DNA of 42,620 nucleotides from an uncultured Bacteroidales bacterium (GCA_946610645.1 CAMOCK010000045.1:1-42620), one strand, 5' to 3'; shown: positions 5,763-39,361, numbered from the stretch's first letter. Notes: generated from the sequence alone by a model not told the origin. Program-made: numbers and translations.

Positions 5763-5775
5763 AGGTTTTTGTTAT

Positions 5776-7398: not shown

Positions 7399-7409
7399 GT
7401 GATAATTAA

Positions 7410-8021: not shown

Positions 8022-8074
8022 GACAAAACGCCATTGTCAAGTAATGATGCTTTAGATTTTAACTCATTTGTATA

Positions 8075-18841: not shown

Positions 18842-18848
18842 GTGATAT

Positions 18849-21636: not shown

Positions 21637-23031
21637 ATGCTTACTTATTTCCCAAATATGGTTTCACGCAAGGCGATGACATTTTATTTCATCACCTTGG
21701 CCGCTTCATCAATCGTGTTTCTCCAATATGTGTTGCCGGTTGGGATGATGTTGTTTGGCATAGTGGAGGTTTGTGCCTTCTTCTATTTCAGTACAGAACT
21801 CACGCGACGTTGGCGATTATTGTCGCCCAAAACGTTTGTCAAAAAAATGTTCTGGACCGCACTGGTTGTCAGGTTGGTTTATATGGTGTTTGTATATTAT
21901 TACTATGAAGCCATGACCGGACGTCCTTTCATGTTTCACTCAGCCGATGAGTTTGTTTATTACAACACCAGCAAGATTTGGCACGATCAGGGTTTTGATG
22001 CCATTATGAGGGCCCTGGAAGACAGTCTTGACGACAGTGGCGAGATTTTTTTCACGGCTTTTCTCTGTCGCATTTTCGGCACTTATATTCTTACGGCACG
22101 CATCGGCCATAGTGTGGTGAGTGCTTTGACTTGCGTGCTCATTTATCGGTTGGGGAAGCGTCATTTTGGCGAGAGTACCGGGCGGATGGCAGCTATCTTC
22201 TGTATGCTGATGCCCAACTTGATCTATTATTGTGGCCTTCATTTGAAAGAGGCCGATATGGTTTTCGTTACGGTCCTTTTCGTGGAAGCCGCTGATTTGC
22301 CTCTCTCCAAACGCAAGTGGGATTGGAAGCTTATACTGCTTGTCTTGGCATCGGGGTTTTCTATGTTCACATTCCGATCAGTGCTTGGCGCTGTGGGTCT
22401 GCTCGCACTTGGTGTGGCATTGGCATTCAACAAAGGATATATCGTCTCGTGGTGGAAACGTATCGCTTTGGCGACAGGGGTTGTTGTCGTGTTGGCCACC
22501 ACTTCCGTCGGGATGAGGATAATGAGTGAAATTGACACGGCGTGGTCGAGAAGGGAATCCAACCAAGCCCAGGGCATGGAATCGAGGTCGCACCGAGGCA
22601 ATAGTTTTGCGGAATACGGTACCGCGGCCGTGTTCGCCCCATTGGTTTTCACCATTCCGTTTCCCACTATGGTCAATACTGAAGGCCATGAGAACCAGCA
22701 GATGCTGCATGGAGGCAATTTTGTAAAAAATGTCATGTCGGGTTTCACGATTTTCGCTTTGGCTCTTCTTCTTCTGAGTGGAGAATGGCGGAAACACACT
22801 CTCCCTATGGCGATGATGGTGGGTTATTTGGCGGTCATCGCTTCAAGTAATTTTGCCCACTCCGAGCGTTTCCCCCAGCCGGCATTGCCATTCGAGCTGC
22901 TTTTTGCTGCTTTTGGCATCTCCCAAATGAAGGCCAAGCACGCCAAATGGTTTGAATATTGGCTTGTTTTTTTGCTTGTGGCCGATGTGGCATGGGCTTG
23001 GGTCAAGTTGGCAGGCAGGGGACTCATATAG
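21637..23031 (+). CDS. Polytopic membrane protein, GT-C/PMT_2 (ArnT-like) candidate; tandem paralog A
   Basis: ATG at 21637, giving 464 aa. First-loop acidic motif FMFHSADEFVYY, then ARIGHSVVSALTCVLIYRLGKRHFG, and many TM spans. Confidence 0.6.
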   Translation: MLTYFPNMVSRKAMTFYFITLAASSIVFLQYVLPVGMMLFGIVEVCAFFYFSTELTRRWRLLSPKTFVKKMFWTALVVRLVYMVFVYYYYEAMTGRPFMFHSADEFVYYNTSKIWHDQGFDAIMRALEDSLDDSGEIFFTAFLCRIFGTYILTARIGHSVVSALTCVLIYRLGKRHFGESTGRMAAIFCMLMPNLIYYCGLHLKEADMVFVTVLFVEAADLPLSKRKWDWKLILLVLASGFSMFTFRSVLGAVGLLALGVALAFNKGYIVSWWKRIALATGVVVVLATTSVGMRIMSEIDTAWSRRESNQAQGMESRSHRGNSFAEYGTAAVFAPLVFTIPFPTMVNTEGHENQQMLHGGNFVKNVMSGFTIFALALLLLSGEWRKHTLPMAMMVGYLAVIASSNFAHSERFPQPALPFELLFAAFGISQMKAKHAKWFEYWLVFLLVADVAWAWVKLAGRGLI

Positions 23032-23053: not shown

Positions 23054-24457
23054 ATGGTTTCCATTTTCCCAGATAAGATTTCCCGTAAGGCTATGACGAC
23101 ATATTTCATAGCACTGGTATCGGTTTCTGTAGTTTTCATAAGTCACATTATGCCGTTTTACATGATGCTGTTCGGCATCGTGGGAGTATGCGCGTTTTTC
23201 TATTTCAGTACGAATCTCACCAAGCAATGGGTGACCCTACATCCCAAAGTGTTTGTGAAGAAACTTTTTTGGACAGCTTTGGTTGTCAGATTGGTATATG
23301 TTGTTTTCGTGTATTTCTTCTATGACGCCATGACAGGGCGGCCTTTCATGTTCTTTTCAGCCGACGAATTCGTTTACTTTAATTCGAGCAAGCTGTGGGC
23401 AGAGTCGGGGTTTGAAACGTTCATGGATTCATTACGTTTTTTTGGAATCGACGACACGGGGGAAATCTTCTTTACAGGATTGCTGTGCAAGGTTTTTGGC
23501 CCCTACATCCTTACGGCGCGTATCGGCCATGGCGTCATGAGTGCTTTGACATGCGTGATGATATATCGGATCGGGAAGCGACATTTCGGTGAGAGCACAG
23601 GACGCATGGCAGCCATTTTTTGCATGTTGATGCCCAATTTGATTTATTACTGCGGTCTTCATCTGAAAGAAGCGGATATGGTTTTTGTAACGGTATGGTT
23701 CGTGGATAGTGTGGATATGGTTGTCAGCGACCACAAGGCGGATTTCAAGCATATATTTTTCGCTTTGTTCTCTTGTTTTGCCATGTTCACTTTTAGGACT
23801 GTGCTGGGAGCGGTAGGTGTCGTTTCGATAGGTATTGCCGTTGCTTTCCACAAAGGGAAAATTGGATCATGGTGGAAGCGAATCTTGTTGATAGTTCTGG
23901 TGGCGACAGCTTTGGCTACCACTTCTATAGGGATGAGGATCATGGGCGAAGTGGATACCGCATGGTCGAGGAGGGAGAGCAATCAGGAAGTGGGCATGGC
24001 GGCACGTGCGCAAAGCATTGGCGGCAACTCCTTCGCAAAATATGCGACAGGTGCGGTTTTCGCACCTTTTATCTTCACCATACCCTTCCCAACGATGTAC
24101 AACATCGAGAGCCAGCAGAACCAACAAATGATTCATGGCGGCAATTTCGTGAAAAACGTCATGTCTGGATTCACCATCTTCGCACTGGTTCTCTTGCTGT
24201 TGAGTGGCGAGTGGCGCAAACACACACTGCCTATCGCCATGATGTGCGGCTATTTGGCGGTCATCGCATTCAGTAATTTCGCCCATTCCGAGCGGTTCCA
24301 CCAACCAGCCATTCCTTTTGAGTTGCTGTTTGCCGCCTTCGGCGTTTCGCAGTTGAAACAGAAGCATTTGAAATGGGTGGATTATTGGTTGGCCATCGTC
24401 TTTATGGCCTGCATTGCTTGGGGTTGGTTCAAACTGGCAGGAAGGGGTGCTATTTGA
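23054..24457 (+). CDS. Polytopic membrane protein, GT-C/PMT_2 (ArnT-like) candidate; tandem paralog B
   Basis: ATG at 23054, giving 467 aa. Collinear with paralog A, including a 41-aa identical run GKRHFGESTGRMAAIFCMLMPNLIYYCGLHLKEADMVFVTV that is encoded with many synonymous differences. Confidence 0.6.
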   Translation: MVSIFPDKISRKAMTTYFIALVSVSVVFISHIMPFYMMLFGIVGVCAFFYFSTNLTKQWVTLHPKVFVKKLFWTALVVRLVYVVFVYFFYDAMTGRPFMFFSADEFVYFNSSKLWAESGFETFMDSLRFFGIDDTGEIFFTGLLCKVFGPYILTARIGHGVMSALTCVMIYRIGKRHFGESTGRMAAIFCMLMPNLIYYCGLHLKEADMVFVTVWFVDSVDMVVSDHKADFKHIFFALFSCFAMFTFRTVLGAVGVVSIGIAVAFHKGKIGSWWKRILLIVLVATALATTSIGMRIMGEVDTAWSRRESNQEVGMAARAQSIGGNSFAKYATGAVFAPFIFTIPFPTMYNIESQQNQQMIHGGNFVKNVMSGFTIFALVLLLLSGEWRKHTLPIAMMCGYLAVIAFSNFAHSERFHQPAIPFELLFAAFGVSQLKQKHLKWVDYWLAIVFMACIAWGWFKLAGRGAI

Positions 24458-25389
24458 TGAAAACACTTGTCGTTTGCAGTTTCAAGGAGCGTTGCGATGG
24501 CAACATCGCCCCGTTTGTAAAGGAGCAAATGGAAGCCTTGCGGTCGGCAGGTGTGGAGTGCGAAAGTTTTTTGGTCAAAGGGAAGGGCATGAAAGGCTAT
24601 CTGAAGCAGGTCAAACCGCTGAAAGCCAAAATAAAAGGCTCCAATCCTGATGTCATCCATGCGCATTTCGGGTTGTGCGGCCTGTTGACCAACCTGCAGC
24701 GCAAGGTGCCGGTCGTGACCACCTACCACGGCTCCGACATCAACGACAAAAAGGCTTTTCCCTTCTCAAAGATGTCCATGCGGCTTTCGGCGTGGAACAT
24801 CTTCGTCTCGCGAAAGACGATGGGAATCGCAAAATCCAAGAAAAAATGCACTCTTTTGCCTTGTGGTATTGATTTCTCAGACTTGCAACTGACTGAAAAA
24901 CATGGGGTAAGACAAAGAATGAACTTGGCCGAAAGCAAGCGTTATGTTCTATTTGCTGGAGCGTTCGACAATGCAGTGAAAAACGCTCCCCTTGCCAAGA
25001 AAACAGTTTCATTTTTGCAAGATGAAAATGTAGAATTACTTGAATTGAAAGGCTATACGCGCGATGAAGTGACTTTGCTGATGTGTGCCGCCGATGCCCT
25101 GTTGATGACCTCGTTCACCGAAGGCTCGCCGCAAGTGGTCAAGGAAGCCTTGGCCTGCGGATGCCCTATCGTAAGCGTGGATGTGGGTGACGTGAAGGAA
25201 CGAACAGATGGCGTTGGAGGTTGCTATGTGGCCAAAACACGCGAACCGATAGAATTGGCAGGCCTGCTTCGGAAGGCCTTGGCTTTTGAGGGCAAGACGA
25301 AAGGCCGGGAAAAACTTCTCACCGATGGCTTGGATAATAGGCAAGTGGCGGAGAGTTTGGTTGGAATTTATAAAACTGTTTTGAAATGA
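24457..25389 (+). CDS. Glycosyltransferase family 4/1 (GT-B)
   Basis: ATG at 24457 (TGATG junction), giving 310 aa. MTSFTEGSPQVVKEALACGCPIVSVDVGDV. Confidence 0.8.
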   Translation: MKTLVVCSFKERCDGNIAPFVKEQMEALRSAGVECESFLVKGKGMKGYLKQVKPLKAKIKGSNPDVIHAHFGLCGLLTNLQRKVPVVTTYHGSDINDKKAFPFSKMSMRLSAWNIFVSRKTMGIAKSKKKCTLLPCGIDFSDLQLTEKHGVRQRMNLAESKRYVLFAGAFDNAVKNAPLAKKTVSFLQDENVELLELKGYTRDEVTLLMCAADALLMTSFTEGSPQVVKEALACGCPIVSVDVGDVKERTDGVGGCYVAKTREPIELAGLLRKALAFEGKTKGREKLLTDGLDNRQVAESLVGIYKTVLK

Positions 25390-26390
25390 AAAGCTTGATA
25401 GAGATTCAAGATATTGACAAGTCCCAATGGGACGCTTTGATACAATCATCTCCTGTCGCCACGTGGTTCCAGACGCAGGAGGCTTTTGGATTTTTCGACA
25501 GCCTGTCTTTCATGGAGGCTTTTGTCGTGGTGGTCGAATCGGAGGGCAAGTTGAAAGGCTTGGTCGTTGGCTATGTGCAAAAGGACGGCGGCAGGCTGAA
25601 GCAGTTCCTCTCGCGGCGGGCCGTCATCCTCGGCGGGCCGTTGCTTGCCGACGACATCAGCGACGAGGAATTGGCGACCTTGCTCAATGCATTGAAAGAC
25701 AGATTGAAACGTAAGGCCATCTTCATCGAAACACGCAACTTCAACGACTACAGCCGCTGGCAGAGCGTGTTTGAAAGTTGTGGGTTTGCTTACGAACCAC
25801 ACTACAATGTGCAAATCGAAACGACGTCGACGGAGGCTGTCAATGGACGGCTCGATCGCAACCGCCGACGCAACATTAAGAAAGCGACGGAGAACGGCCT
25901 TGCCATCGACGAAAACCCGACGAAGGCTGATATGGCGAAATTCTATGCCATGCTCGACGGTTTGTTTCGCACCAAAGTGAAATCGCCGCTCTATCCTTAC
26001 GAGTTTTTCGAGAAATTGCGGGCATTGCCTTCGTCGCGTTTCTTCATGGCGAAAAATGCTGAGGGCGAGTTGCTTGGCGGCATTGTGTGCGTGGTCATGG
26101 AAGGCCGTGCGGTTTACGCATGGGCGGCTTGCGGCGACGACCAAAACCACCGCAGCCTGTCGCCTTCGGTCATGTCCAACTATGCGGGCATTTGCCATGC
26201 CGCCGAAAATGGCTATCCACGTTTCGACTTCATGGGCGCCGGCAAGCCCGACGACGGCGGCTATGGCGTGCGCGACTTCAAACTGAAGTTCGGCGGCGAG
26301 TTGGTCGAACACGGGCGTTTCATCCATGTTTGCAACCCTGTCTTGTTCAGCCTCGGCAAGTTAGGCGTAAAGATAATGAAAAAGCTATGA
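25386..26390 (+). CDS. FemAB-like / Acetyltransf_6 (GNAT-superfamily) protein, copy 1
   Basis: 334 aa. The size, the W...L........F.T..W N-terminus and the C-terminal YDFMGAG......G...FK.KFGGE pattern are typical of FemX/FemAB-like peptidyl or aminoacyl transferases found in glycan loci. Confidence 0.6.
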   Translation: MKSLIEIQDIDKSQWDALIQSSPVATWFQTQEAFGFFDSLSFMEAFVVVVESEGKLKGLVVGYVQKDGGRLKQFLSRRAVILGGPLLADDISDEELATLLNALKDRLKRKAIFIETRNFNDYSRWQSVFESCGFAYEPHYNVQIETTSTEAVNGRLDRNRRRNIKKATENGLAIDENPTKADMAKFYAMLDGLFRTKVKSPLYPYEFFEKLRALPSSRFFMAKNAEGELLGGIVCVVMEGRAVYAWAACGDDQNHRSLSPSVMSNYAGICHAAENGYPRFDFMGAGKPDDGGYGVRDFKLKFGGELVEHGRFIHVCNPVLFSLGKLGVKIMKKL

Positions 26391-27403
26391 AACCGCGCGT
26401 GGAGGTCGATTTCAACGCCGATGACCGACGGACGTTCAGGAGCAGGAAACCAGGTTATAGTCCGAAAACCAATGAGTTTCTGTTCAACCATGCCCGCAGT
26501 GGCCTGCTACTTGCCTTGCAGTCGCTGGAATTGCCAAAAGGCAGCAAGGTGGGCGTGATGGTTTACAACTGCCACACGGTGATGAACGCCGTGGCGCAAG
26601 CCGGATGCGAGGTGGTCTTTATCGACATCGACGACCACATGAGAATCGACCGAGACGATTTGGAAAGGAAGTCAAATGGTCTTAAAGCGTTGATTGTTAC
26701 GCATTTGTTCGGCATAATTAACGATATTGATGCCATTCGCAAGCAATATCCTCAGCTGCCCATCATCGAGGATTGCGCCCATGCTTTCGGCAAGGAAATC
26801 GTCGGCGATTTTGGGGTCTATAGCATCGGCCAAGGGAAGCTGCCCTCGCTTGGCGACGGTGGCATCCTGACGGTGAACAACGAGAAGTTTGCCGATGCCG
26901 TAAAAGCTTTGTACGACAAGCTCCCAAGCTATTCGCGCCTTGACGATCTTAGGTTGTATTTGAAACTACGGCTGACTGACCTTGCGCACAAGCCGTGGAT
27001 TTACGGTATCACAAGCCGCCTGAAACAAGGCAAGAAACCGCAGGCGGGCCGCGAGCCAATCATGGCAAAGCGGATGTCGGCAGGGGTGCAAGCCATGCTT
27101 GCCTTGCGAAATAGCGAAGTGGAAGGAAAAGTGGAACGCCGCCTCGAAAACGTCATGGAAGAAACAATCCGTTTGAAACATAATAGTTTGGTTACAAGTG
27201 TTTTGTGCGGCAAAAACGCCTTTATGTTGGTGACATTCAGCACAAGTCCTTCGGCACTGAAAAAGCAATACGCGAAACGCGGCATTGAGACGGCCACCCA
27301 TTTCGCCAACAGCATCCATTGGGCGCGAGAATTCGGCTATCGTGGCGACTGCCCCAATGCCGAAAAGTTAAGGAAGGAATTACTGATGATTCCTGTGTAT
27401 TAA
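26387..27403 (+). CDS. DegT/DnrJ/EryC1/StrS-family PLP-dependent enzyme (sugar aminotransferase-like, divergent)
   Basis: ATG at 26387 inside ORF 26087..27403, giving 338 aa. IIEDCAHAFG and YSIGQGKLPSLGDGGIL (candidate PLP lysine) motifs. Confidence 0.65.
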   Translation: MKPRVEVDFNADDRRTFRSRKPGYSPKTNEFLFNHARSGLLLALQSLELPKGSKVGVMVYNCHTVMNAVAQAGCEVVFIDIDDHMRIDRDDLERKSNGLKALIVTHLFGIINDIDAIRKQYPQLPIIEDCAHAFGKEIVGDFGVYSIGQGKLPSLGDGGILTVNNEKFADAVKALYDKLPSYSRLDDLRLYLKLRLTDLAHKPWIYGITSRLKQGKKPQAGREPIMAKRMSAGVQAMLALRNSEVEGKVERRLENVMEETIRLKHNSLVTSVLCGKNAFMLVTFSTSPSALKKQYAKRGIETATHFANSIHWAREFGYRGDCPNAEKLRKELLMIPVY

Positions 27404-27440
27404 ATTGAAAGTGAAATAGTTATATGAATTGGTATTTTTA

Positions 27441-27527
27441 GACACGAGACTTCGGGACGCGGGACGCGAGACATTTGTAAAGTCCCGCGTCTCGCAGTCC
27501 CGTGTCTCGCGTCAATTGATTATACGG
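27441..27527. repeat. GC-rich imperfect palindromic intergenic element, copy 1 (built from GGGAC/GTCCC and GAGAC/GTCTC words)
   Basis: cgagacttcgggacgc (27445-27460) and gtcccgtgtct (27497-27507) are identical to 32162-32177 and 32192-32202. Copy 1 carries extra internal duplications (gggacgc; gtcccgcgtctcgca). The shared right flank is attatacg. Confidence 0.85.
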
Positions 27528-27547
27528 TTTAATTTTCATGGTTACTT

Positions 27548-28558
27548 ATGTACGATTTCAAACGAATTGACCCCACCGACGACGACTGGAAAGCCATAGA
27601 AGCGACATACGATGGCACGGTCTACAAGACCAAGGCATGGTTCGACTATTTGGCCTACCAGCATTGCCTGCCATTCATCGCAAAAGTTTTCCAAGATTCC
27701 AACCTGATTGGCTATTTTGTTGGCGCTCTGCTCAAACGGGGCGTTTGGACGCTCGGTGCGCCGTTGGAAGGCGTGGGCACGGGCAACCAAGGATTGGCCA
27801 TGCTGCGAGAGACGTTGCCGCCAGAACGCATCGAGATTTACAAGGCGTTGGCCAAGTGGGTGTTCAAGAACCGCTATGCGGTATGGCTGCAAGTGGAGGA
27901 TTGGCAACTTGAGATTTACGACTTTGAGGGCAACGAGGACATCATGGAATACCACGACTCCAGTTGGGTCGACCTGACCGCCGACGAAGAGACGATGTGG
28001 CGTAGGACTTCGCAAAAATCATGTCGATACATGATAAACAAGGCCAAAAAGCAAGGTGTCTTCGTTAGAGAGGCGGAAGATGAAGAATCTTTCCTGAACG
28101 TGCATTTTGAGCAGCATTTGGATGTGATGGAACGAAAAGGATTGTCGCCACTGAGAAGCAAGGAGAACCTGAGGGAATTGATTAAAGCAACTTATCCGGA
28201 CAAGCTTTTGCTTTTGGAGGCCGTTACCTCGGATGGGAAAGTAGTGGGAACGGGGATGTATCCCGTTGGCGGTGGCAGCAGTTGCCTTTTCATGGTTGCG
28301 GCCAAGCAAGAGGACTTGGTTTATTGCCCAAATGAAATCCTGATGTGGGAGGCTTTGGTGCGATGCAAGGCAAGAGGTGCCCGCTTTTTCAATATGAATG
28401 GTGTCATGCCTTACAAATTGAAATATGGCACACTTCGCGACTTCAGGCCACGCCTCGTTTTCCAGAAACATAAAGGATTAGCCGTATTCAGGAAGTTTTT
28501 CAAGGACATCTATCATAAATTGAGGTTTAGCCTGTTCAAAATCAAGGAAGAATCATGA
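27548..28558 (+). CDS. FemAB-like / Acetyltransf_6 (GNAT-superfamily) protein, copy 2
   Basis: 336 aa. Same overall layout as the CDS at 25386 (W..I........KT.AWFDYL; C-terminal FFNMNGV..YKLKYG) but distantly related to it. Confidence 0.55.
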   Translation: MYDFKRIDPTDDDWKAIEATYDGTVYKTKAWFDYLAYQHCLPFIAKVFQDSNLIGYFVGALLKRGVWTLGAPLEGVGTGNQGLAMLRETLPPERIEIYKALAKWVFKNRYAVWLQVEDWQLEIYDFEGNEDIMEYHDSSWVDLTADEETMWRRTSQKSCRYMINKAKKQGVFVREAEDEESFLNVHFEQHLDVMERKGLSPLRSKENLRELIKATYPDKLLLLEAVTSDGKVVGTGMYPVGGGSSCLFMVAAKQEDLVYCPNEILMWEALVRCKARGARFFNMNGVMPYKLKYGTLRDFRPRLVFQKHKGLAVFRKFFKDIYHKLRFSLFKIKEES

Positions 28559-29655
28559 AAACCTACCTCTTTTCCCTCGGCCATCCTGCGCATTTCCACA
28601 TGTTCAAGCACACGATGCGTGCCTTGAAAGATGAAGGGCACAAGGTGATTGTCGTCGTAAGGCCGAAAGACGTCTTGGAACAGTTGTGTATCAACGAAGG
28701 TGTTGAATATCACAGCATTGGCCAACGTCCCGACAAGGGCGGGAGGCTGAGCCGCGCCATGGTGGTTGTGCAGCGCTTCTTTGCCATCGCAAGGATTGTC
28801 AGGAAGGGAAAGCCTTGCATGCTCATCGGCTCCGATGGCGTGATGGCCTATCTCGGCACGATGTTCCGCACGCCTTCCTTCGAGTTTTTCGACGACGACT
28901 ACGCTATCATCAAGCTCTATGCCTGGGCCTTCTTCCCGTTCTATTCCGACTTGGTGTGCCCCAACGTCACCGATGCAGGACGCTGGTCGAAGAAGAAAAA
29001 GACGGGCTATGAGGGCTACCAGAAATTGGCTTACTTGCACCCCAACCGCTTCGCGCCCGACCGGAGCGTGGTCGAAAAGTATTTCCCCTCCGACAAGCCT
29101 TACTTCTTGCTCCGCTTCGCCAAACTCAATGCGCACCACGACAAGGGCATTGGCGGCATCAGTGGCGAAGTGGCGCAGCATCTCATCGACATGCTTCTGC
29201 CACACGGCAACGTCCACATCACCTCCGAGAGGCCGTTAGACGCTCGTTTTGAGCCATATAGGCTGCATATCAACCCGTCCGACATGCACCATATCCTCGC
29301 TTTCGCCAACCTTTACATCGGCGACAGCCAAAGCATGGCGGTGGAGGCGGCCATGCTCGGCACACCAAGCCTGCGCTTCAACGACTTTGCGGGAAAAATC
29401 TCGGTTTTGGAGGAATTGGAGCACAAATACGAACTTACTTTTGCCATCCCGCCTTCCGACCCCGAAAGGCTATATATGAAAGTGGATGAGTTGTTGTCGT
29501 TGCCCGATTTGCGCGAGACTTTCCAACAGCGGCGGCAAAAGATGCTCTCCGAGAAAATCGACGTGGCGGCGTTCTTTACTTGGTTCGTCGAGAACTACCC
29601 GGAAAGCCGCAAAATCATGCGCGAGAATCCGGATTACCAGTGGCGCTTCAAGTAA
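28555..29655 (+). CDS. DUF354 family protein (GT-B/epimerase-like fold, uncharacterised)
   Basis: 366 aa. The N-terminus MKTYLFSLGHPAHFHMFKHTMRALKDEGHKVIVV matches the pattern I remember for DUF354 (...HPAH.H.FK..I..L...GHEV). Confidence 0.5.
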   Translation: MKTYLFSLGHPAHFHMFKHTMRALKDEGHKVIVVVRPKDVLEQLCINEGVEYHSIGQRPDKGGRLSRAMVVVQRFFAIARIVRKGKPCMLIGSDGVMAYLGTMFRTPSFEFFDDDYAIIKLYAWAFFPFYSDLVCPNVTDAGRWSKKKKTGYEGYQKLAYLHPNRFAPDRSVVEKYFPSDKPYFLLRFAKLNAHHDKGIGGISGEVAQHLIDMLLPHGNVHITSERPLDARFEPYRLHINPSDMHHILAFANLYIGDSQSMAVEAAMLGTPSLRFNDFAGKISVLEELEHKYELTFAIPPSDPERLYMKVDELLSLPDLRETFQQRRQKMLSEKIDVAAFFTWFVENYPESRKIMRENPDYQWRFK

Positions 29656-29676
29656 CTGTCAGTAATATTGTTGTTT

Positions 29677-30252
29677 ATGCAATTCGAAATACAAGAACCA
29701 CATGCCATCCCGTTCTACGGCGGCGACAAGAAATTGGGCGAGGCCGTGAAAAGCGCGGGCGCAAGGCGCAACATGGGGCCTTTGCGCTTCGCTTTCAGGA
29801 AGATAAAGAACATTATCCTTGCGCGAATGTCGTATTTTTGCCCGCTCAACGGATGGCGGGTGAAGATGAACCGCTGGCGTGGCGTCCATGTCGGGAAGAA
29901 CGTCTATATCGGGATGCATTGCGTGATCGACAATGCTTATCCGGAGTACGTCTACATCGAGGACAACGTCTCGCTCGCGGGCGAGGTGACGGTCATCGCG
30001 CACATGAACCCCTATCCGCATTTCGAGGGGGTCATCGAGCCGAAAGTAGCGCCGGTGGTCATCCGCCGTGGGGCTTGGATTGGCGTGAAGAGCGTGGTGC
30101 TTTGCGGTGCCGAAGTGGGGGAGTATGCCATCGTCTCTGCCGGCTCGGTGGTCGATAAGAAGGTGAACCCGTGCACGATAGTGGCTGGAAATCCCGCACA
30201 CAAGAAAGTCGGCTTTTCCACGTTAATGAAAGACAAAATGACGAAAGAATGA
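29677..30252 (+). CDS. Hexapeptide-repeat (LbH) acyltransferase
   Basis: ATG at 29677, giving 191 aa. GKNVYIGMHCVID...VVIRRGAWIGVKSVVLCGAEVGEYAIVSAGSVVDKKVNPCTIVAGNPA. Confidence 0.85.
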   Translation: MQFEIQEPHAIPFYGGDKKLGEAVKSAGARRNMGPLRFAFRKIKNIILARMSYFCPLNGWRVKMNRWRGVHVGKNVYIGMHCVIDNAYPEYVYIEDNVSLAGEVTVIAHMNPYPHFEGVIEPKVAPVVIRRGAWIGVKSVVLCGAEVGEYAIVSAGSVVDKKVNPCTIVAGNPAHKKVGFSTLMKDKMTKE

Positions 30253-31178
30253 AGACAGCATTGATATTTCCGGGCCAAGGGTGCCAGAAAGAGGGCATGG
30301 GGAAAGAGCTTTACTCCGCGTTCCCCGAAGCCGAGGCCTTGTTTGAACGCGCCAACGACTTCTTCGGTCGCCGTATCACGGATGTGATGTTCCACGGCAC
30401 GGAACTGGAGTTGATGGAAACGAAAAACACCCAGCCCGCCGTGTTTATTTATGAGGTGGCCGCCGCCCTGACCCAGAAAAAAGTTGTCCCCGATGTGGTG
30501 GCGGGCCATTCGCTTGGCGAGTTTGCCGCCTTGGTGGTGAGTGGCTGCTTGAGCTTCGAGGACGGACTTGACTTGGTGTATCACAGGGCCTTGTTCGGGC
30601 AAAAGGCGTGCGAGAAAACGCCCACGGCGATGGGTGCCGTCATCGGTTTGGACGACGATTATGTGGCAAGGCGTGTCAAGGAGGTTTGGGACGAAACGGG
30701 CGAACCGGTGTATATGGCCAACTACAACGGCCCTGGCCAAGTGGTGATTACGGGTAGCAAGATGGGCATCCGCACCGCGCTCAAGGCCCTGAAAGAGGAA
30801 GGTGCGAAGAAGGCCGTCCTGCTCGGCATCGGAGGGTCGTTCCATTCGCCTTACATGGACGAAGCGCGTGAGGAATTGGGCGAAATCATAAAAAAAACGA
30901 CATTCAATGTGCCAAAATGTCCAATTTACCAGTGTGTCGACGGCAAGCCTCACACCGACCCTGACGAACTGAAAGCCAACCTGATAGAACACATCACACA
31001 CCCTGTGCTTTGGACGACGATGGTGCGCAATATGCAGTCCGACGGCGTTGGCACATATTTTGAGGTCGGCACCGACGACACGCTCCAGAAAATCGTGGCA
31101 CGCATGTGTCCCGAAAGTGAAGTGCGTTCCATTTGGGAAGTGGAAGATTATAAACCATTAAATATCTTAAAACCATGA
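30249..31178 (+). CDS. fabD: Malonyl-CoA:ACP transacylase (FabD family)
   Basis: ATG at 30249, giving 309 aa. ALIFPGQGCQ, VAGHSLGEFAAL (active-site Ser), ANYNGPGQVVITG, GSFHSP. Confidence 0.85.
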   Translation: MKTALIFPGQGCQKEGMGKELYSAFPEAEALFERANDFFGRRITDVMFHGTELELMETKNTQPAVFIYEVAAALTQKKVVPDVVAGHSLGEFAALVVSGCLSFEDGLDLVYHRALFGQKACEKTPTAMGAVIGLDDDYVARRVKEVWDETGEPVYMANYNGPGQVVITGSKMGIRTALKALKEEGAKKAVLLGIGGSFHSPYMDEAREELGEIIKKTTFNVPKCPIYQCVDGKPHTDPDELKANLIEHITHPVLWTTMVRNMQSDGVGTYFEVGTDDTLQKIVARMCPESEVRSIWEVEDYKPLNILKP

Positions 31179-31402
31179 CATTAGACCAATTTGTACAGCA
31201 ATTTGCCGAGCAGTTCGACGAAACTCCAGCCAACCAATTCACGCCTGCTACCGACTACAAGTCGTTGGACGAATGGGGTTCGCTGACCACTCTCGGCGTC
31301 ATCACCATGGTGGATGCCGAAATGGAGAAACGCATCACCGCCTCTAACTTGCTGGCATGCACCACAATTGAGGAACTTTACAACTTTATCCAAAGGATTT
31401 GA
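31175..31402 (+). CDS. Acyl carrier protein-like (dedicated carrier)
   Basis: 75 aa and acidic. LDEWGSLTTLGVITMVD sits at the position of the DSL phosphopantetheine-attachment motif. Flanked by fabD and the SDR with overlapping stop/start codons. Confidence 0.65.
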   Translation: MTLDQFVQQFAEQFDETPANQFTPATDYKSLDEWGSLTTLGVITMVDAEMEKRITASNLLACTTIEELYNFIQRI

Positions 31403-32151
31403 TGAACGGGCGTTTTTCGTTGGAAGGGAAGACCCTTCTCGTGACGGGAGCCTCGTCGGGAATCGGGCGTTGCGTGGCGGTGGAATGTGCCAAAATGGGC
31501 GCGAAAATCGTCATCAACGGGCGCAACCAAGAACGTTTGAACCAAACGCTTTCCATGTTGGAAGGCATTGGCCATCAAGCCATTGCCGCCGACCTTGCCG
31601 ACCCTGAAGCCGTCGAAAAGATGGTGGCGCAGTTGCCGCCGTTGGACGGCGTTTCGCATAACGCCGGAGTCTCCAACATCGGCATGATCAAATTCTTGAA
31701 GGAGAACGACTGGAACGACCTTTCGCAGGCCAACGTTTTTTCCGCCATTTGGCTGACGCGCTGCCTTGTAGCCCGCAAAAAACTCAACCGCCCCGCGTCC
31801 ATCGTGTTCACTTCGTCCATTTCGGGCAACGACAGCGTGCGTCACGGCGAAGCGCTTTATGCCGCCACCAAAAGTGCCCTAAGCGGTTTCGCGAAGGCGG
31901 CGGCGCTTGATTTGGCCTCTCAAGGCATCCGAGTGAATTGTGTGCATCCCGGAATGATTGAGACGGAGTTGTTCCATTCAGCGCAAGAGGTTATGAACCA
32001 AGATCTTGACGAGTTGAAGAAACTGTTTCCGCTCAAGCGTTTTGGCCAGCCGGAAGACGTGGCCGATGGCATCATCTATCTCTTGTCTGGCGCCTCGGCG
32101 TGGGTGACAGGCACGGAACTGAAAATTGACGGAGGATATACCTTAACATGA
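31402..32151 (+). CDS. Short-chain dehydrogenase/reductase (FabG-like 3-oxoacyl-ACP reductase)
   Basis: ATG at 31402 (TGATG junction), giving 249 aa. GKTLLVTGASSGIGR (TGxxxGxG), YAATKSAL (YxxxK), VHPGMIET. Confidence 0.85.
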   Translation: MNGRFSLEGKTLLVTGASSGIGRCVAVECAKMGAKIVINGRNQERLNQTLSMLEGIGHQAIAADLADPEAVEKMVAQLPPLDGVSHNAGVSNIGMIKFLKENDWNDLSQANVFSAIWLTRCLVARKKLNRPASIVFTSSISGNDSVRHGEALYAATKSALSGFAKAAALDLASQGIRVNCVHPGMIETELFHSAQEVMNQDLDELKKLFPLKRFGQPEDVADGIIYLLSGASAWVTGTELKIDGGYTLT

Positions 32152-32230
32152 CGCGTGACGGCGAGACTTCGGGACGCGAGACACTGGAGCAGTCCCGTGT
32201 CTGAAAGTCACGTGTCAAAAATTATACGAC
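32151..32230. repeat. GC-rich imperfect palindromic intergenic element, copy 2
   Basis: acgcgtgac(32151-32159)/gtcacgtgt(32207-32215), gagac/gtct and gggac(32171-32175)/gtccc(32192-32196) can form a segmented hairpin. Shares its cores with copy 1. Confidence 0.85.
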
Positions 32231-32231
32231 A

Positions 32232-33233
32232 ATGAAAGCCTACATACAAGCCTTGGCCTACAGCCTGCCTGAAAAAGTGCTGACCAATGCCGACCTCGCG
32301 AAGGAATTTCCTGAATGGACCGAGGAGAAAATCATGAAGAAATTGGGCATCGCCGAGCGGCACGTGGTTGCCGCCGACGAAACCGCTTCCGACATGGCCG
32401 TTTCCGCTGCCGAAAAGTTGTTCTCTGAAAACCAAATCGACACTGAAACGGTTGATTATCTGATATTTTGCACCCAAAGTCCCGACTACATTTTGCCCAC
32501 CACGGCCTGTCTGATTCAGCAAAGGTTGGGTCTGAAAGACAGCATCGGGGCTATCGATGTGAACCTTGGCTGTTCGGGCTGGATCTTTGGGCTTTCTTTG
32601 GCCAAGGGTTTGGTTTTGGGCGGCATGGCGAAGCGCGTGCTGTTGCTGACGGCGGAAACCTATTCGAAATATCTTCATCCTCGCGACAAAGGCAACCGCA
32701 CCATCTTCGGCGACGGCGCGGCGGCCACTTTGGTCGGATGTGACGGCATCGCCGAAATCGGGAACTTCAGCTTCGGTACCGACGGCAACGGCGCGGAGAA
32801 TTTGATAGTGAAATCAGGTGGCGCACGGCATAGAAAGCAACTTGATGATTTACAGTTCGATAACTTTGGAAATCCCAAGTCGTCGGACTATATTTACATG
32901 AACGGTGCCGAGATTCTGAACTACACACTCGACCGCATCCCCGGACTGATTGAGGAAGTGCTGCAAAAGAACGGTTGTGTCATGGAAGACATTGACTTGC
33001 ACGTCTATCATCAAGCCAACAAATACATTGCTAACCTGCAGCGCGTGAAGATGAAAATCGCGCCCGAAAAATACTACTGTTGTTTTGAACATGTGGGCAA
33101 TACGGTTTCATCGACCATCCCGATTGCCTTGAAGGAAGCCTTGAATGACGGCTCCATCAAGCCCGGAAACAAGGTGCTTTCGGTGGCACAAGGTTTGGGT
33201 TACTCGTGGGGCGGTGTGATGATGCAATTCTGA
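32232..33233 (+). CDS. 3-oxoacyl-ACP synthase III (KAS III, FabH-like)
   Basis: 333 aa. Cys-His-Asn triad context: NLGCSGWIFGL, YHQANKYI, HVGNTVSSTIP. Confidence 0.85.
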   Translation: MKAYIQALAYSLPEKVLTNADLAKEFPEWTEEKIMKKLGIAERHVVAADETASDMAVSAAEKLFSENQIDTETVDYLIFCTQSPDYILPTTACLIQQRLGLKDSIGAIDVNLGCSGWIFGLSLAKGLVLGGMAKRVLLLTAETYSKYLHPRDKGNRTIFGDGAAATLVGCDGIAEIGNFSFGTDGNGAENLIVKSGGARHRKQLDDLQFDNFGNPKSSDYIYMNGAEILNYTLDRIPGLIEEVLQKNGCVMEDIDLHVYHQANKYIANLQRVKMKIAPEKYYCCFEHVGNTVSSTIPIALKEALNDGSIKPGNKVLSVAQGLGYSWGGVMMQF

Positions 33234-33244
33234 CGTTTTGGACT

Positions 33245-34165
33245 ATGCCAAATGACCGTTTTTGCTTGATTACCAACGACGTTGAAACCACGTCGATTCT
33301 GAACCACAAGTTGCGCGACAAAACAGGCGAGTATGTGCTCAACCAAGGGATGCCGCGACTTTTGGACTTGTACGCGAGATACGGCGTGAAGGCCACGTTT
33401 TTCTTTACGGGCCATATCGCCAAGCTCTATCCAGAAGTGGTGAAAATGGCCTACGAGCGTGGCCACGAGGTTGGTTCTCACGGACTTACCCACGAAGTGA
33501 GCAAGGCTTTTGATGTGATGCCTCCCGAGGAGCAACTTTCGCACCTCAAGCAATCCAAACAGATTCTGGAAGACATTGTGGGCGAAGAAGTTGTGTCGTT
33601 TCGCGCTCCAGCGGCGCGGGTCGATAAGGCGTTTCCGAAAGTCTTGAGAGAGGCTGGCTTCAAGGTGGATAGCTCGGTTTCGTCGCAACGGATGGACATG
33701 ATGTTCTCGTTTGGCGCGTTGAAAAAACTCCATTGGTTAGTCGCACCGAGGAAGGCTTACTTCACCAGTGAAGGCAACATCTTCCGCAAGGGCGATTCGC
33801 CCATCCTTGAAGTGCCCATTTCGGCAATGGGATTCCCATATATCGGCACTTTCATGCGCATTGCGCCTGCACTTAACCGATTCACGCGCAGACTGTTGTA
33901 TTGCGAAACGCTGTGCAATGGTCGGCAGTTTGTCTTTCTCACCCATCCTAACGAGTTCATTGACGAGGACAAGGAAACCGACGAAATCGAGCGTCGCGCC
34001 AAGAACTATATCGCTTATCTTCTTGGCGATGTGCTTCGCCACAAGTTGAAAGTCAGGAACTTGGGCGAAAGTGCTTTGCCGATTTACGAGCGCGAATTGG
34101 TGTTTTTCAAAGACAAAGGCTTTGAATTCCTGACATGCAAGGATTTGTTGGCCAAAAAGAGTTGA
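33245..34165 (+). CDS. Polysaccharide deacetylase (NodB/CE4 homology domain)
   Basis: ATG at 33245, giving 306 aa. ITNDVET, ATFFFTG, GHEVGSHGLTHE metal-binding His motif. Confidence 0.8.
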   Translation: MPNDRFCLITNDVETTSILNHKLRDKTGEYVLNQGMPRLLDLYARYGVKATFFFTGHIAKLYPEVVKMAYERGHEVGSHGLTHEVSKAFDVMPPEEQLSHLKQSKQILEDIVGEEVVSFRAPAARVDKAFPKVLREAGFKVDSSVSSQRMDMMFSFGALKKLHWLVAPRKAYFTSEGNIFRKGDSPILEVPISAMGFPYIGTFMRIAPALNRFTRRLLYCETLCNGRQFVFLTHPNEFIDEDKETDEIERRAKNYIAYLLGDVLRHKLKVRNLGESALPIYERELVFFKDKGFEFLTCKDLLAKKS

Positions 34166-34167
34166 TT

Positions 34168-34977
34168 ATGCGCGACTTCACCCTGAAATCATACCGCTCA
34201 TTGCTGGTGGCATTCCAAAAGGCAGGCTATCGGTTCCAGACTTTTGAGGCATTCACGGAGCATCCCGCCGAAGGCAAGACAGTGGTCATGCGGCACGATG
34301 TGGACGAGAAAGCGCCCAACGCGCTGAAAATGGCGCAATTGGAGCATGAATTGGGCATCCGTGCGACCTATTTTTTCCGCATTGTCAAGCAGAGCAATGT
34401 TCCGGAAGTGATTCGTGGCATTGCGGCTTTGGGCCACGAAATCGGCTATCATTACGAGGATTTGGCCACCGCCGAGGGCGACATGGAAAAAGCAGTTGGA
34501 GCCTTTAAGAAAAATCTAACGTATTTCCGTGATTATTACCCAGTTAGGTCGGTGTGTATGCATGGTAGTTCCACTTCGAAATTCGACAACCGACTGCTTT
34601 GGGAAACGCACCAACTTTCCGATTTTGGGTTGGTAGGAGAGCCTTATCTCAGCGTCGATTTCGGCAAGGTTTTCTACCTCACCGACACAGGCTACGCTTG
34701 GGACGGCGGCAAGTTTGCCACCCGCGACGTCGTTGAAAACCATTTTGGCTTAAAATTCCACACCACCGAGCAAATCGTGGCTTGCATCGCGTCTGGCAAT
34801 TTCCCCGAAAAGGTTCTGATACTCGCCCACACTTTGTGGACCGATAGTTTCTCACAATGGACAACCTTGCATTTGCGCGAGTTTTTCAGGAACAATTTGA
34901 AACTATTGGCCCAAAACAACGAGGGTGTTGCGAAATTGTACAAGAAAATGGTCAATTTGTATTGGAAAAAAGTGTAA
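34168..34977 (+). CDS. Polysaccharide deacetylase-like protein (second, divergent CE4-like)
   Basis: ATG at 34168, giving 269 aa. VVMRHDVDE, IRATYFFR, GHEIGYHYE. Confidence 0.6.
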   Translation: MRDFTLKSYRSLLVAFQKAGYRFQTFEAFTEHPAEGKTVVMRHDVDEKAPNALKMAQLEHELGIRATYFFRIVKQSNVPEVIRGIAALGHEIGYHYEDLATAEGDMEKAVGAFKKNLTYFRDYYPVRSVCMHGSSTSKFDNRLLWETHQLSDFGLVGEPYLSVDFGKVFYLTDTGYAWDGGKFATRDVVENHFGLKFHTTEQIVACIASGNFPEKVLILAHTLWTDSFSQWTTLHLREFFRNNLKLLAQNNEGVAKLYKKMVNLYWKKV

Positions 34978-35007: not shown

Positions 35008-35799
35008 ATGAATATGAAAAAGAACAAGTCATTCTGGGCCATTGTGTTGCCGTTTTTAGCGGCGATGGCCAGCTCGTGCGTTGCTCCCAAAGATGTTCGC
35101 TATCTTCAGGACATGGAGCAAAAACGCGTTGTTGCGCTGAACCGTAAGTTTGAGGCTGTCATCAGTCCTTCAGACATTTTAAGTATTAGTGTCCATAATG
35201 ACAATATGGACAACGAATTGGCCAACCCGTTTAACCAAGGCAGGGGTGGGGCAGGAACTTCCGGTAATTCTGGCTCGGGCTACCTCGTTGATGTGAATGG
35301 CGACATCGAGATGCCGGTTCTCGGTCATCTTCATGTGGCCGGTTTGACACGTCTCCAATTGATAGACACCATCAGGCGCCGCTTGACGGAAGAGTCGTAC
35401 ATGGGCAAGCCGAGGGTCGATGTCAGATTCTCGAATTTCAAGATTTACATACTGAATGCTGAAGGCGGTAGTTCCATCTCCATAAACAACGAGCGTTGCA
35501 CTTTGCTGGAAGCCCTTGCGCTTTCGGGTGCCGCCGATCTCTACACACGGAGAGACAAGATTGGCGTGTTGCGTGAAGTGGATGGCAAGATGACGCTTCG
35601 CTACCTCGACCCGCGTTCCTCGGAGGTGTTTGAAGATCCTTTCTTCATGCTTCAGCAAAACGACATCATCCTCACGGATCCGTTCAGAAGTATTTATTTC
35701 AAGCAATGGCTGAACTCAGGATGGTCGGTGGTGGCTACCATCATGTCGGTGGTCACTTCGGGTTTGGCAATTTATGCTTTGATTAAGAATAATAAATGA
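35008..35799 (+). CDS. wza: Polysaccharide export outer-membrane lipoprotein (Wza family, Poly_export + SLBB)
   Basis: 263 aa. Lipoprotein signal ...FLAAMASSC, DILSISVHN, GDIEMPVLGHLHVAGLT..QL, C-terminal TM helix. Confidence 0.85.
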   Translation: MNMKKNKSFWAIVLPFLAAMASSCVAPKDVRYLQDMEQKRVVALNRKFEAVISPSDILSISVHNDNMDNELANPFNQGRGGAGTSGNSGSGYLVDVNGDIEMPVLGHLHVAGLTRLQLIDTIRRRLTEESYMGKPRVDVRFSNFKIYILNAEGGSSISINNERCTLLEALALSGAADLYTRRDKIGVLREVDGKMTLRYLDPRSSEVFEDPFFMLQQNDIILTDPFRSIYFKQWLNSGWSVVATIMSVVTSGLAIYALIKNNK

Positions 35800-38322: not shown

Positions 38323-39050
38323 TAGGCCTGTTCAGAACAAAATTGTCCCACGATTTCTTTCATGGGGCGTGTGACGTGCATTGCCACCTTCTCCCAGGTG
38401 TTGATGACGGATTCAAGACTGTCGAGGCATCGGTGGAGGCCTTGCGGTTGCTTGAGGATCATGGCATAGAGAGAATGGTGCTTACGCCTCATTTCATGAA
38501 AGAATATGCCGAAAACGATAGAGAAAGCATCTTGGCCAAGTTTGAGGCATTCAAGGCAGAGGCAGAAAAAGCGTGCAAAATCGAATTGCGACTCGCGGCG
38601 GAATACATGCTCGATGTCGGTTTCAGGAAGCATTTCAAGCAAGGGTTCCTAACTTTGGACAAAGGCGGTCGTAATGTGCTTTGCGAAACATCATACATGA
38701 TGTATGAACACGATGCCTTCGAAATGCTATACGAGATTATGTTGGAAGGCTATCAGCCGGTCATCGCCCATCCTGAGAGGTATGTGTATGCCTCGCAGAA
38801 GGATTACCAGAACTGGAAAGACAAGGACTATTTGTTTCAGCTCAACCTGCTTTCATTGGCAGGCGCCTATGGCGGCGAGGCGGTTGCCAAGGCGCATTAC
38901 ATGCTCGAAAAAGGAATGTACGATTTCGTGGGTTCCGACATGCACAATCTGGATAACTACAAGCGTTTCATGCCTCGGATCAAGTTGGGCAGGAAAGCGT
39001 TGGACCAATTGGGAATCCTGTTGGAGAACAACAGGAAATTGGTTTCCTGA
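38319..39050 (+). CDS. PHP-family protein-tyrosine phosphatase (CpsB/YwqE-like)
   Basis: 243 aa. DVHCHLLPGVDDG N-terminal motif and VIAHPERY. ATGA-coupled to wzc. Confidence 0.85.
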   Translation: MIGLFRTKLSHDFFHGACDVHCHLLPGVDDGFKTVEASVEALRLLEDHGIERMVLTPHFMKEYAENDRESILAKFEAFKAEAEKACKIELRLAAEYMLDVGFRKHFKQGFLTLDKGGRNVLCETSYMMYEHDAFEMLYEIMLEGYQPVIAHPERYVYASQKDYQNWKDKDYLFQLNLLSLAGAYGGEAVAKAHYMLEKGMYDFVGSDMHNLDNYKRFMPRIKLGRKALDQLGILLENNRKLVS

Positions 39051-39112: not shown

Positions 39113-39361
39113 TGGCTGTCAGAACGAGTATGTATCTGTTCACACCGAACCTGCCTTTCCGATACAGCCATTGGGTTTGCTCCTTGCTGCCGCTTTGGTT
39201 GAAGCGGATGTCGCTGATGAAGACAGGCTGGTCGGCCAAGTTGCGTGCCTTGATGGCGATGGTTTTGGTTGGGGGCTGGGCATGGATGCTTAAAACTCCC
39301 ATAATAATGGTTGCTAATGCCAATAAACGCTTCATTTCATTGTGTCTTTTGTCCTTCGTTT

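Follow-up and report, generated by a model that had tools for sequence, protein, structure and literature searches.

Conserved Fem-like, DUF354-like and CE4-like enzymes joined by two accessory cassettes at the export-proximal end of a Bacteroidales exopolysaccharide locus

Introduction

Directly upstream of the export genes of a Bacteroidales exopolysaccharide (EPS) locus, a fatty acid synthase (FAS)-like gene set with its own acyl carrier protein (ACP) stands among genes for Fem-like transferases and CE4-type deacetylases, which raises the question of whether these genes form one unit and what they would add to the exported glycan. The genes occupy positions 25386-34977 of a 42,620-nucleotide stretch of DNA from an uncultured Bacteroidales bacterium (GCA_946610645.1, CAMOCK010000045.1:1-42620), which is referred to here, at its full length of 42.6 kb, as the window. 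Twelve + strand genes, mostly overlapping, lie there immediately 5' of wza-wzc-cpsB, as established by open reading frame (ORF) listing and translation together with Pfam and NCBIfam searches. These ORF calls and domain matches confirmed a first, sequence-only reading of the DNA, which had described twelve consecutive genes with these domains directly 5' of wza-wzc.

In several phyla, EPS systems such as the Caulobacter holdfast and the PEP-CTERM loci are tied genetically to a deacetylase that is paired with a Fem-like protein. To our knowledge, the group that such pairs add has never been identified.

Results and Discussion

The block is a mosaic of a conserved core and two cassettes

An alignment of Fem1 (25386..26390, + strand), a FemABX-family double-GNAT transferase, was scanned against one genome per species, yielding 46 loci onto which the window proteins were mapped. 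The surveyed loci come mostly from uncultured rumen and gut Bacteroidales, together with Paludibacter, Porphyromonas-like metagenome-assembled genomes (MAGs), Gabonibacter massiliensis, and one Fibrobacter MAG, and all counts refer to the loci that were informative for the gene in question. The order of the core is GT2, GT(DXD), PMT_2, GT4, Fem1, DUF354, CE4b, Wza, Wzc, CpsB (GT, glycosyltransferase). A gene for a DUF354-like enzyme (28555..29655, +) stands beside Fem1 in 40 of 41 loci, the gene for the divergent CE4-like deacetylase CE4b (34168..34977, +) is found in 36 of 37, and a GT4 glycosyltransferase gene (24457..25389, +; Pfam Glyco_trans_1_4 and Glyco_transf_4) lies directly 5' of Fem1 in 40 of 44. 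The best NCBIfam match of the GT4 protein is TuaC-like, with a score far under the cut-off. Wza-Wzc-CpsB is kept 3' of CE4b in most loci, and in the closer relatives an M3 peptidase gene comes after CpsB, as it does in the window. This region forms the conserved end, proximal to the export genes, of a Bacteroidales exopolysaccharide locus.

In contrast, the other genes of the block are rarely encountered. A DegT-like pyridoxal phosphate (PLP) enzyme (26387..27403, +) is encoded in 6/39 loci and a second FemABX-family transferase, Fem2 (27548..28558, +), in 4/39; these two genes make up cassette A. Cassette B comprises the genes for an LbH acyltransferase (29677..30252, +), a FabD-type malonyl-CoA:ACP transacylase (30249..31178, +), a dedicated 75-amino-acid ACP (31175..31402, +), a FabG-like short-chain dehydrogenase/reductase (SDR) ketoreductase (31402..32151, +), and a FabH-like beta-ketoacyl-ACP synthase III (KAS III; 32232..33233, +). 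FabD, ACP, SDR, and KAS III were each found in a single one of 37 loci, always L005, and the polysaccharide deacetylase CE4a (33245..34165, +), an accessory protein that recurs as a partner of LbH, in 5/37. Since the core genes are present in 36 to 40 of ~40 loci and the accessory genes in 1 to 6, the block is a mosaic of three pieces, namely, the core trio Fem1/DUF354-like/CE4b and cassettes A and B.

The sequence-only reading had regarded the block as one self-contained decoration module. In favor of joint inheritance, all twelve genes are co-directional and tightly packed, with start/stop overlaps at Fem1/DegT-like, Fem2/DUF354, LbH/FabD, FabD/ACP, and ACP/SDR, and the close relatives L001, L002, and L005 hold the same set in the same order. 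However, the survey, with 37 to 41 informative loci for the genes concerned, splits the block into a near-universal core, shared by ~40 species, and accessory insertions (DegT-like plus Fem2, and LbH through CE4a). We consider it very improbable that the twelve genes are one co-inherited, self-contained module.

The accessory genes also appear in other combinations and positions among the surveyed loci. DUF354 and CE4b enclose a variable slot with contents that differ by species: WecB-type UDP-GlcNAc 2-epimerases in L014, L024, L033, L034, and L038 (L036 also has a dehydrogenase), an LpxD-like LbH with a PIG-L deacetylase in Gabonibacter (L030), a lone LbH in L017, and insertion sequence (IS) elements or toxin genes in others. 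CE4a was never seen without a nearby LbH (L007, L014, L031, L035, and L005). In L031, LbH and CE4a are adjacent and in the same order as in the window, while in the window and L005 they directly flank the four FAS genes.

The core trio resembles deacetylase and Fem-like pairs of other exopolysaccharide systems

Fem1 matches Pfam FemAB at 45.7 bits (cut-off, 24) as well as Acetyltransf_6, and has more than 3500 homologues, with identities of 66-93%. Its AlphaFold (AF2) model (pLDDT, 89.6) has the double-GNAT FemX fold, with TM scores of 0.69-0.72 to FemX structures. The best 11 PDB matches in Foldseek are all aminoacyl-tRNA-dependent enzymes (S. aureus FemX and FemA, W. viridescens FemX, and Sba18/Sbb17), and the best PDB match of the sequence profile is Sba18 (E, 8.9e-8). 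An invariant Fem1 segment, G-V-R-D-F-K-L-K-F-G-G-E, aligns with G-I-N-R-F-K-L-G-F-G-G-E of Sba18, and F298-K299 within it, invariant across 26 homologues, is aligned with F-K of both Sba18 and FemA. The catalytic lysine of W. viridescens FemX, Lys305, lies in this F/Y-K motif region (PMC12945691).

Like Sba18 and Sbb17 (PDB 9wqy and 9wqw), for which the acceptor is an amino-sugar amine, Fem1 has the pattern G-x-x-x-F-K-L-x-F-G-G-E, and its Foldseek TM scores to these two structures are 0.71-0.72 when normalized to the query and 0.82-0.83 when normalized to the target. Sba18 acts on the amino sugar of streptothrisamine. To this sugar the streptothricin-type enzyme Orf11 is reported to carry glycine donated by Gly-tRNA (PMC12945691), which provides a precedent for a Fem-fold enzyme that aminoacylates a sugar amine. 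Unlike Fem1, Orf11 and Sba18/Sbb17 serve Streptomyces small-molecule antibiotic pathways, and the identity to Fem1 is ~20%. From its modeled fold and conserved residues, Fem1 is predicted to transfer an aminoacyl group from aminoacyl-tRNA to the nitrogen of a de-N-acetylated sugar. The earlier suggestion that the Fem-like proteins might add amino acids gains strength from their resemblance to aminoacyl-tRNA-dependent transferases, one of which aminoacylates an amino sugar.

The DUF354-like protein falls just under the Pfam cut-off (21.3 bits versus 22), and many of its homologues (53-84% identity) carry a precomputed PF04007 match. Its AF2 model (pLDDT, 89.1) has a GT-B fold, for which Foldseek returned GT1/GT28 glycosyltransferases and UDP-GlcNAc 2-epimerases about equally (TM score up to 0.70). 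Comparison of the sequence profile with solved structures gave marginal MurG and 2-epimerase matches, and hhalign against the locus-encoded WecB epimerases gave a weak probability of 9%. Judged by its modeled fold, the DUF354-like protein may be either a glycosyltransferase or an epimerase-like enzyme. A full-text literature search on DUF354 returned unrelated DUF354x families only.

The two CE4-type deacetylases of the sequence-only reading fared differently. CE4a stands, with a Polysacc_deac_1 score of 81.2 bits (cut-off, 23.1). CE4b has no Pfam match, and its assignment as a divergent CE4 relative is suggested by an hhalign match to CE4a (probability, 93%; E, 3.5e-7), by weak PDB matches to PgdA-type CE4 enzymes (E, 0.016-0.1; e.g., 2c1g, E 0.02), and by the invariant motifs H43-D44-x-D46 and H90-x4-H95. 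In one locus (L045, 10984-12774), from a goat-rumen Bacteroidales MAG, DUF354 and CE4b form one in-frame ORF of 597 amino acids. This is possibly a natural fusion linking the two activities; alternatively, an assembly error that deleted a stop codon could account for it. Separately, a candidate LbH-CE4b or CE4b-Wza fusion in L029 was rejected, as the ORF extension had crossed a stop codon.

None of the twelve proteins of the block contains a hydrophobic segment, which implies that they act in the cytoplasm. The nearest described analogue of the core, as far as gene descriptions allow the comparison, appears to be the HfsH/HfsK pair of the Caulobacter crescentus holdfast pathway. HfsH is a cytosolic CE4 deacetylase and HfsK is a Fem-like GNAT protein proposed to acylate the amines that HfsH exposes on holdfast precursors, a role that the authors themselves call unclear (PMC5362036). 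Both systems place a cytoplasmic deacetylase and a Fem-like double-GNAT protein in a Wza/Wzc-type EPS pathway. In contrast to the holdfast pair, the genes described here belong to another phylum, are adjacent to each other, and are accompanied by a DUF354 GT-B enzyme.

A similar combination is found in the XrtA/PEP-CTERM systems, where a Fem-like protein and a CE4 deacetylase are likewise encoded in a Wza/Wzc EPS locus, and the families TIGR03019 (FemAB) and TIGR03006 are the best NCBIfam matches of Fem1, Fem2, and CE4a. The scores for TIGR03019 (42.1 bits for Fem1 and 29.2 bits for Fem2 versus 260.35) and TIGR03006 (91.3 bits for CE4a versus 276.2) are far under the cut-offs, so the three proteins are not members of those families. 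No exosortase was found among the window ORFs scanned with Pfam. The Myxococcus spore-coat genes exoG-exoH-exoI (GNAT, DegT, GNAT), together with the deacetylase ExoL, may offer a further parallel, which serves here as a lead and carries no weight in the argument; glycine-rich bridges have been suggested for that coat.

Cassette B probably encodes a dedicated short-chain acylation route

The LbH protein matches Hexapep at 40.9 bits. Its best NCBIfam models are of the YvoF, WcaF, and maltose/galactoside O-acetyltransferase (MAT, GAT) types, and its best PDB match is the sugar N-acetyltransferase WlbB (3mqg; E, 3.7e-12). It is not of the PglD/NeuD type, scoring 41 bits against a cut-off of 160.8 for the NeuD/PglB/VioB family and having no PglD_N domain. 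Affinity to WlbB, WcaF, and MAT does not fix N- versus O-acylation, and the product could be an amide or an ester. The amide is favored by the recurrent deacetylase partner and by the LpxD-like/PIG-L pair that occupies the same slot in Gabonibacter, whereas the WcaF/MAT-like affinities and the LbH/CE4a pairs found without FAS genes call for caution.

FabD scores above the cut-off of its equivalog model (TIGR00128, 266.8 bits versus 260.9) and has the nucleophile motif GHSLGE. The ACP scores under the PP-binding threshold (19.5 bits versus 20.8) and is 16% identical to E. coli AcpP; its Ser36, the modifiable serine expected by the earlier reading, is invariant in 26 family members and aligned with Ser36 of AcpP. 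It also aligns with the putative ACP 2lml across the W-D-S-L site. The SDR protein matches adh_short_C2 (174 bits) and KR (62.9 bits) and has both TGxxxGIG and YxxxK, yet it scores under every FabG equivalog cut-off (best models, 156-171 bits versus 222-333), so that it is FabG-like only. KAS III, the sole condensing enzyme of the block, exceeds the cut-off of NF006829 (267 bits versus 249) but not that of TIGR00747 (254 versus 292). It scores 344 bits to 3gwa as opposed to ~155 to E. coli FabH, and the Cys/His/Asn residues are conserved in the alignment with 3gwa.

The proposal that these FAS-like genes are dedicated is supported, as they lie within a glycan locus and their ACP is part of a small family (104 clusters, each of ~75 amino acids) with members in Bacteroidales glycan loci. 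A housekeeping origin was rejected, since this ACP family is confined to glycan loci and 36/37 syntenic loci lack the genes. In agreement with the sequence-only reading, a scan of the main + strand ORFs and the one large - strand ORF of the window turned up neither a dehydratase nor an enoyl reductase.

In the pathway that we propose for cassette B, FabD would load malonate onto the dedicated ACP, the lone KAS III would condense malonyl-ACP with acetyl-CoA, and the SDR would reduce the product to 3-hydroxybutanoyl-ACP. The chemistry is expected to stop at this point, because neither a dehydratase nor an enoyl reductase is encoded. KAS III enzymes are primed by acyl-CoA, not by acyl-ACP. One acyl-CoA-primed KAS III together with one ketoreductase implies a single condensation and favors the C4 product 3-hydroxybutanoyl-ACP over a C6 product. 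Of the two products that had first been put forward, C4 and a C6 dihydroxyacyl group, the former is thus preferred, while cassettes of the C6 type elsewhere carry two KAS genes. Cassette B most likely adds 3-hydroxybutanoyl to the exported polysaccharide.

A close precedent is found in Flavobacterium psychrophilum, where wfpC and wfpE encode KAS enzymes, wfpD an ACP, wfpF a ketoreductase, and wfpG a PglD-like transferase (PMC6519341). From these genes, Cisar and colleagues inferred the logic of a 3,5-dihydroxyhexanoyl amide on Qui2NAc4N, the pathway itself being predicted (PMC6519341). Both 3-hydroxybutanoyl and dihydroxyhexanoyl amides occur in Vibrio cholerae O100 (PMC12024518). As in wfpC-G, a dedicated ACP, a KAS, and a ketoreductase are encoded next to an LbH acyltransferase gene in a glycan locus without a dehydratase or enoyl reductase. 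Unlike wfpC-G, with its two different KAS enzymes, the window has one KAS III and its own FabD, and its LbH is of the WlbB/WcaF/MAT rather than the PglD type and has a CE4 partner, with no adjacent PglE/PglF-type genes.

The arrangement [acyltransferase]-FabD-ACP-KR-KAS III (KR, ketoreductase) recurs in other Bacteroidales glycan loci, L051-L056, with one or two KAS and KR genes and with amino-sugar genes (DegT, FdtA, PglF-like) among the neighbors. L051 has a PglD-like LbH and two KAS III genes, next to DegT, a PglF-like dehydratase, and Bac_transf; L052 and L053, both from Odoribacter, have a GNAT, one KAS III, and one SDR, next to an AMP-ligase and a second ACP; L054 and L055 have a GNAT-like protein and a PglD-like LbH, two KAS, and two SDR, together with a weak MaoC hot-dog candidate, FdtA, and DegT; and L056 has an LbH and two KAS. 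The acyltransferase sits 5' of FabD, as in the window, in L051, L052, L054, L055, and L056. That such cassettes recur without FabZ/FabI, the weak hot-dog candidate being seen in the larger ones only, speaks for a deliberate omission of these steps, although housekeeping enzymes may still help.

As a side observation, a gene for a metallo-beta-lactamase-fold protein of ~210 amino acids lies 3' of KAS III in four independent cassettes (L051, L052, L055, and L056), and a glyoxalase-fold gene is present in two FabD-ACP cassettes; the window has neither. These proteins might release or modify the acyl-ACP product.

Such housekeeping help would be central if the dedicated ACP, KAS III, and FabD only initiated a chain that FabZ, FabI, and FabF then extended to a medium- or long-chain (hydroxy)acyl group, for instance a lipid anchor or a hydrophobic decoration. 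In type II FAS the enzymes are diffusible, and there are known systems in which a dedicated ACP works with borrowed housekeeping enzymes. Moreover, the KAS III belongs to a distinct subfamily, as its scores to 3gwa and FabH indicate, so its primer specificity might differ. However, the low identity of the ACP to AcpP and the presence of an own FabD in every cassette suggest poor cross-talk with the housekeeping enzymes. Cassettes elsewhere also scale in their KAS and KR numbers (1+1, 2+1, 2+2), which, with the hot-dog candidate confined to the larger ones, fits self-contained short-chain chemistry, and the precedent product with a solved structure carries no more than a C6 dihydroxyacyl chain (PMC6519341). 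We regard chain extension by housekeeping enzymes as decidedly unlikely.

The evidence from these cassettes also bears on a second alternative, in which Fem1 and Fem2 use acyl-CoA or acyl-ACP, one of them (most plausibly Fem2) consumes the 3-hydroxyacyl-ACP, and the LbH is an ordinary O-acetyltransferase. GNAT-type transferases hold the slot 5' of FabD in L052, L054, and L055, the LbH resembles the WcaF, MAT, and GAT O-acetyltransferases, and HfsK is without an established donor (PMC5362036). In contrast, Fem1 is found in ~40 species without any FAS cassette, and its nearest solved relatives, by sequence as well as by structure, are all aminoacyl-tRNA-dependent, with F-K in Fem1 and Y-K in Fem2. 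Furthermore, the FabD-adjacent GNATs elsewhere are single-domain Acetyltransf_3 proteins, not Fem-type, and in the window the genes from LbH to SDR overlap start to stop, whereas DUF354 separates Fem2 from them. This alternative seems unlikely to us on balance, but it deserves more weight than chain extension.

In the preferred pathway for cassette B, LbH would pass the acyl group from the ACP to the glycan, the likeliest acceptor being an amine that CE4a has unmasked. This order would parallel LpxC/LpxD of lipid A synthesis, where a deacetylase is followed by an LbH N-acyltransferase that uses 3-hydroxyacyl-ACP. It would differ from LpxC/LpxD in having a CE4 enzyme rather than LpxC, a short WlbB/WcaF-like LbH rather than LpxD, a dedicated ACP, a short chain, and an EPS target. 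The original proposal of an LbH that hydroxyacylates an amino sugar gains support from the wfpC-G precedent, while CE4a is a more likely source of the amine than the DegT-like enzyme, since the CE4a/LbH pair recurs without FAS genes and Gabonibacter has its PIG-L and LpxD-like pair. Taken as a whole, the FAS-like cassette is a recurrent, already-predicted device, and the conserved Fem1-DUF354-CE4b trio is the less explained and more interesting part of the block.

Cassette A co-varies with the DUF354 subtype

The DegT-like enzyme matches PF01041 at 89.9 bits and, at 338 amino acids, is N-terminally short and divergent; all of its NCBIfam equivalog matches are far under the cut-offs. Its PLP (Schiff-base) lysine aligns with that of 7n63. 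Fem2 matches FemAB at 25.0 bits (cut-off, 24) and Acetyltransf_6 at 37.5 bits and shares 23% identity with Fem1 in a full-length BLASTP alignment, with GVMPYKLKYG aligned with GVRDFKLKFG, so that Y-K is kept. DUF354 identity to the window protein is 76-89% in loci with a DegT-like gene, 52-55% in two others, and ~40% where the gene is absent, so that the subtype of DUF354 tracks the presence of cassette A.

Two related GC-rich hairpin elements (27444-27513 and 32150-32216), with the common core ACTTCGGGACGCGAGACA, occupy the only sizeable intergenic gaps of the block, between the DegT-like and Fem2 genes and between SDR and KAS III. Folded as RNA, they reach energies of -50.3 kcal/mol (z, -7.8) and -37 kcal/mol (z, -4.7), respectively. 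At the corresponding junctions of L005 there are no hairpin elements and the genes abut. Exact copies of the core were found in 9 unrelated metagenome contigs, always as palindromes of GACRCGRGAC-like units. The hairpins look like members of a dispersed family resembling repetitive extragenic palindromic (REP) or miniature inverted-repeat transposable (MITE) elements, and Rfam had no match in the window, the hairpin elements included.

A proposed scheme of amine unmasking and reacylation

We propose that the block encodes two parallel steps of the kind "unmask an amine, then reacylate it," one carried out by CE4b and Fem1 with an aminoacyl group and the other by CE4a and LbH with a hydroxyacyl group, to which cassette A is added. 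Both steps would be cytoplasmic and would act on sugar precursors linked to a nucleotide or a lipid. In the core, the DUF354-like GT-B enzyme would install or prepare an N-acetyl-hexosamine, CE4b would strip its N-acetyl group, and Fem1 would move an amino acid from aminoacyl-tRNA onto the freed amine; this order is suggested by adjacency of the genes in ~40 species and by the L045 fusion. In cassette A, the DegT-like enzyme and the co-varying DUF354 subtype would supply a further amino group, which Fem2 would acylate. We judge this scheme about equally likely to hold or to fail.

Several points weigh against it, including the resemblance of LbH to O-acetyltransferases (WcaF, MAT, and GAT are among its nearest families) and the donor question of HfsK raised above. 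The scheme builds on gene content, catalytic motifs, predicted folds, and co-occurrence, all of which were observed, whereas we infer every substrate, donor, and product. A Fem fold is no proof of tRNA dependence, and tandem-GNAT proteins at Foldseek ranks 13-50 use acyl-CoA. The DUF354 protein, going by its model, could be epimerase-like and not a transferase, and its fusion with CE4b is known from a single MAG. LbH homologues (31-57% identity) pair with CE4a in loci without FAS genes, so LbH is not obligatorily ACP-dependent. No keto-sugar-forming enzyme that might serve the DegT-like protein is encoded in the window. Lastly, type II FAS enzymes act in trans, and housekeeping FabZ, FabI, and FabF could extend the chain.

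A bolder version, which we put forward tentatively and hold to be rather doubtful in full, is that the trio of DUF354 GT-B enzyme, divergent CE4, and FemX-fold protein carries out tRNA-dependent aminoacylation of EPS repeat units, to which this lineage adds a 3-hydroxybutanoyl amide from a private ACP. If true, this would mean an amino-acid- or peptide-decorated EPS, which might be cross-linkable. It would also give DUF354 a first function and supply the missing chemistry for "deacetylase + Fem" pairs of the HfsH/HfsK and PEP-CTERM types. The ~40 species in which the pair is fixed beside DUF354, with variants that have or lack the Fem/DegT and ACP cassettes, offer a comparative series from which that chemistry might be worked out. 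The FabD-ACP-KR-KAS III cassettes, for their part, represent a modular and apparently common route to short-hydroxyacyl diversity on Bacteroidales surface glycans, which bears on antigenic variation and on how phages and hosts recognize members of gut and rumen communities.

Other features of the window

Downstream of the block, Pfam matches identify genes for a Wza-like protein of the OPX (outer membrane polysaccharide export) type (35008-35799, +), a Wzc bacterial tyrosine (BY) kinase (35818-38322, +), and a CpsB/CapC phosphatase (38319-39050, +). The tyrosine-rich tail at the Wzc C terminus (38121-38238) is an unusually long, regular Gly-Tyr repeat (GYGYGGYGYGYGG...), for which a 21/42-bp tandem DNA repeat codes, and a lysine-rich tail comes after it. 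The intergenic region that separates cpsB from the convergent M3 peptidase gene holds a 32-bp tandem repeat (39361-39439; 2.4 copies, 87% matches).

Upstream, the core is flanked by two PMT_2 (GT-C) membrane glycosyltransferase genes, copy a (21637..23031, +; Pfam PMT_2, 33.3 bits) and its tandem paralogue copy b (23054..24457, +; ~70% identity to copy a), and a homologue lies 5' of GT4-Fem1 in 31/39 loci. Neither a Wzx flippase nor a Wzy polymerase nor an initiating phosphoglycosyl transferase is encoded in the 42.6-kb window. Further genes encode an EamA-like small membrane protein (2507-3088), two unannotated polytopic membrane proteins (2728-4641 and 9438-10703), a WecE-type dTDP-4-amino-4,6-dideoxygalactose transaminase (4647-5762; 562 bits versus a cut-off of 375), a DUF6056 protein (5713-7398), and a GtrB/ArnC-like GT2 (8506-9441). 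This gene set, the two PMT_2 genes included, suggests that periplasmic, undecaprenyl phosphate (Und-P)-sugar-dependent glycosylation takes place beside the cytoplasmic steps.

The run of glycosyltransferase genes is broken by two AAA-ATPase genes (1210-2397 and 14273-15874), of the AAA_14/DUF4143 and AAA_22/AAA_35 types. A near-identical DUF4143 ATPase (89%) is present in the locus of another species, L022, and ATPase, IS, and HipA-like genes of a similar kind fill the variable slot in L018, L022, L024, L034, and L038. The G+C content is 0.39-0.42 at 6000-12000 and 18000-19000 as opposed to 0.50-0.56 elsewhere in the locus. These low-GC stretches, which span the DUF6056, LbH, GT2, and acyltransferase_3 genes and a pyruvyl transferase gene (17942-18841), are consistent with recent acquisition of those parts.

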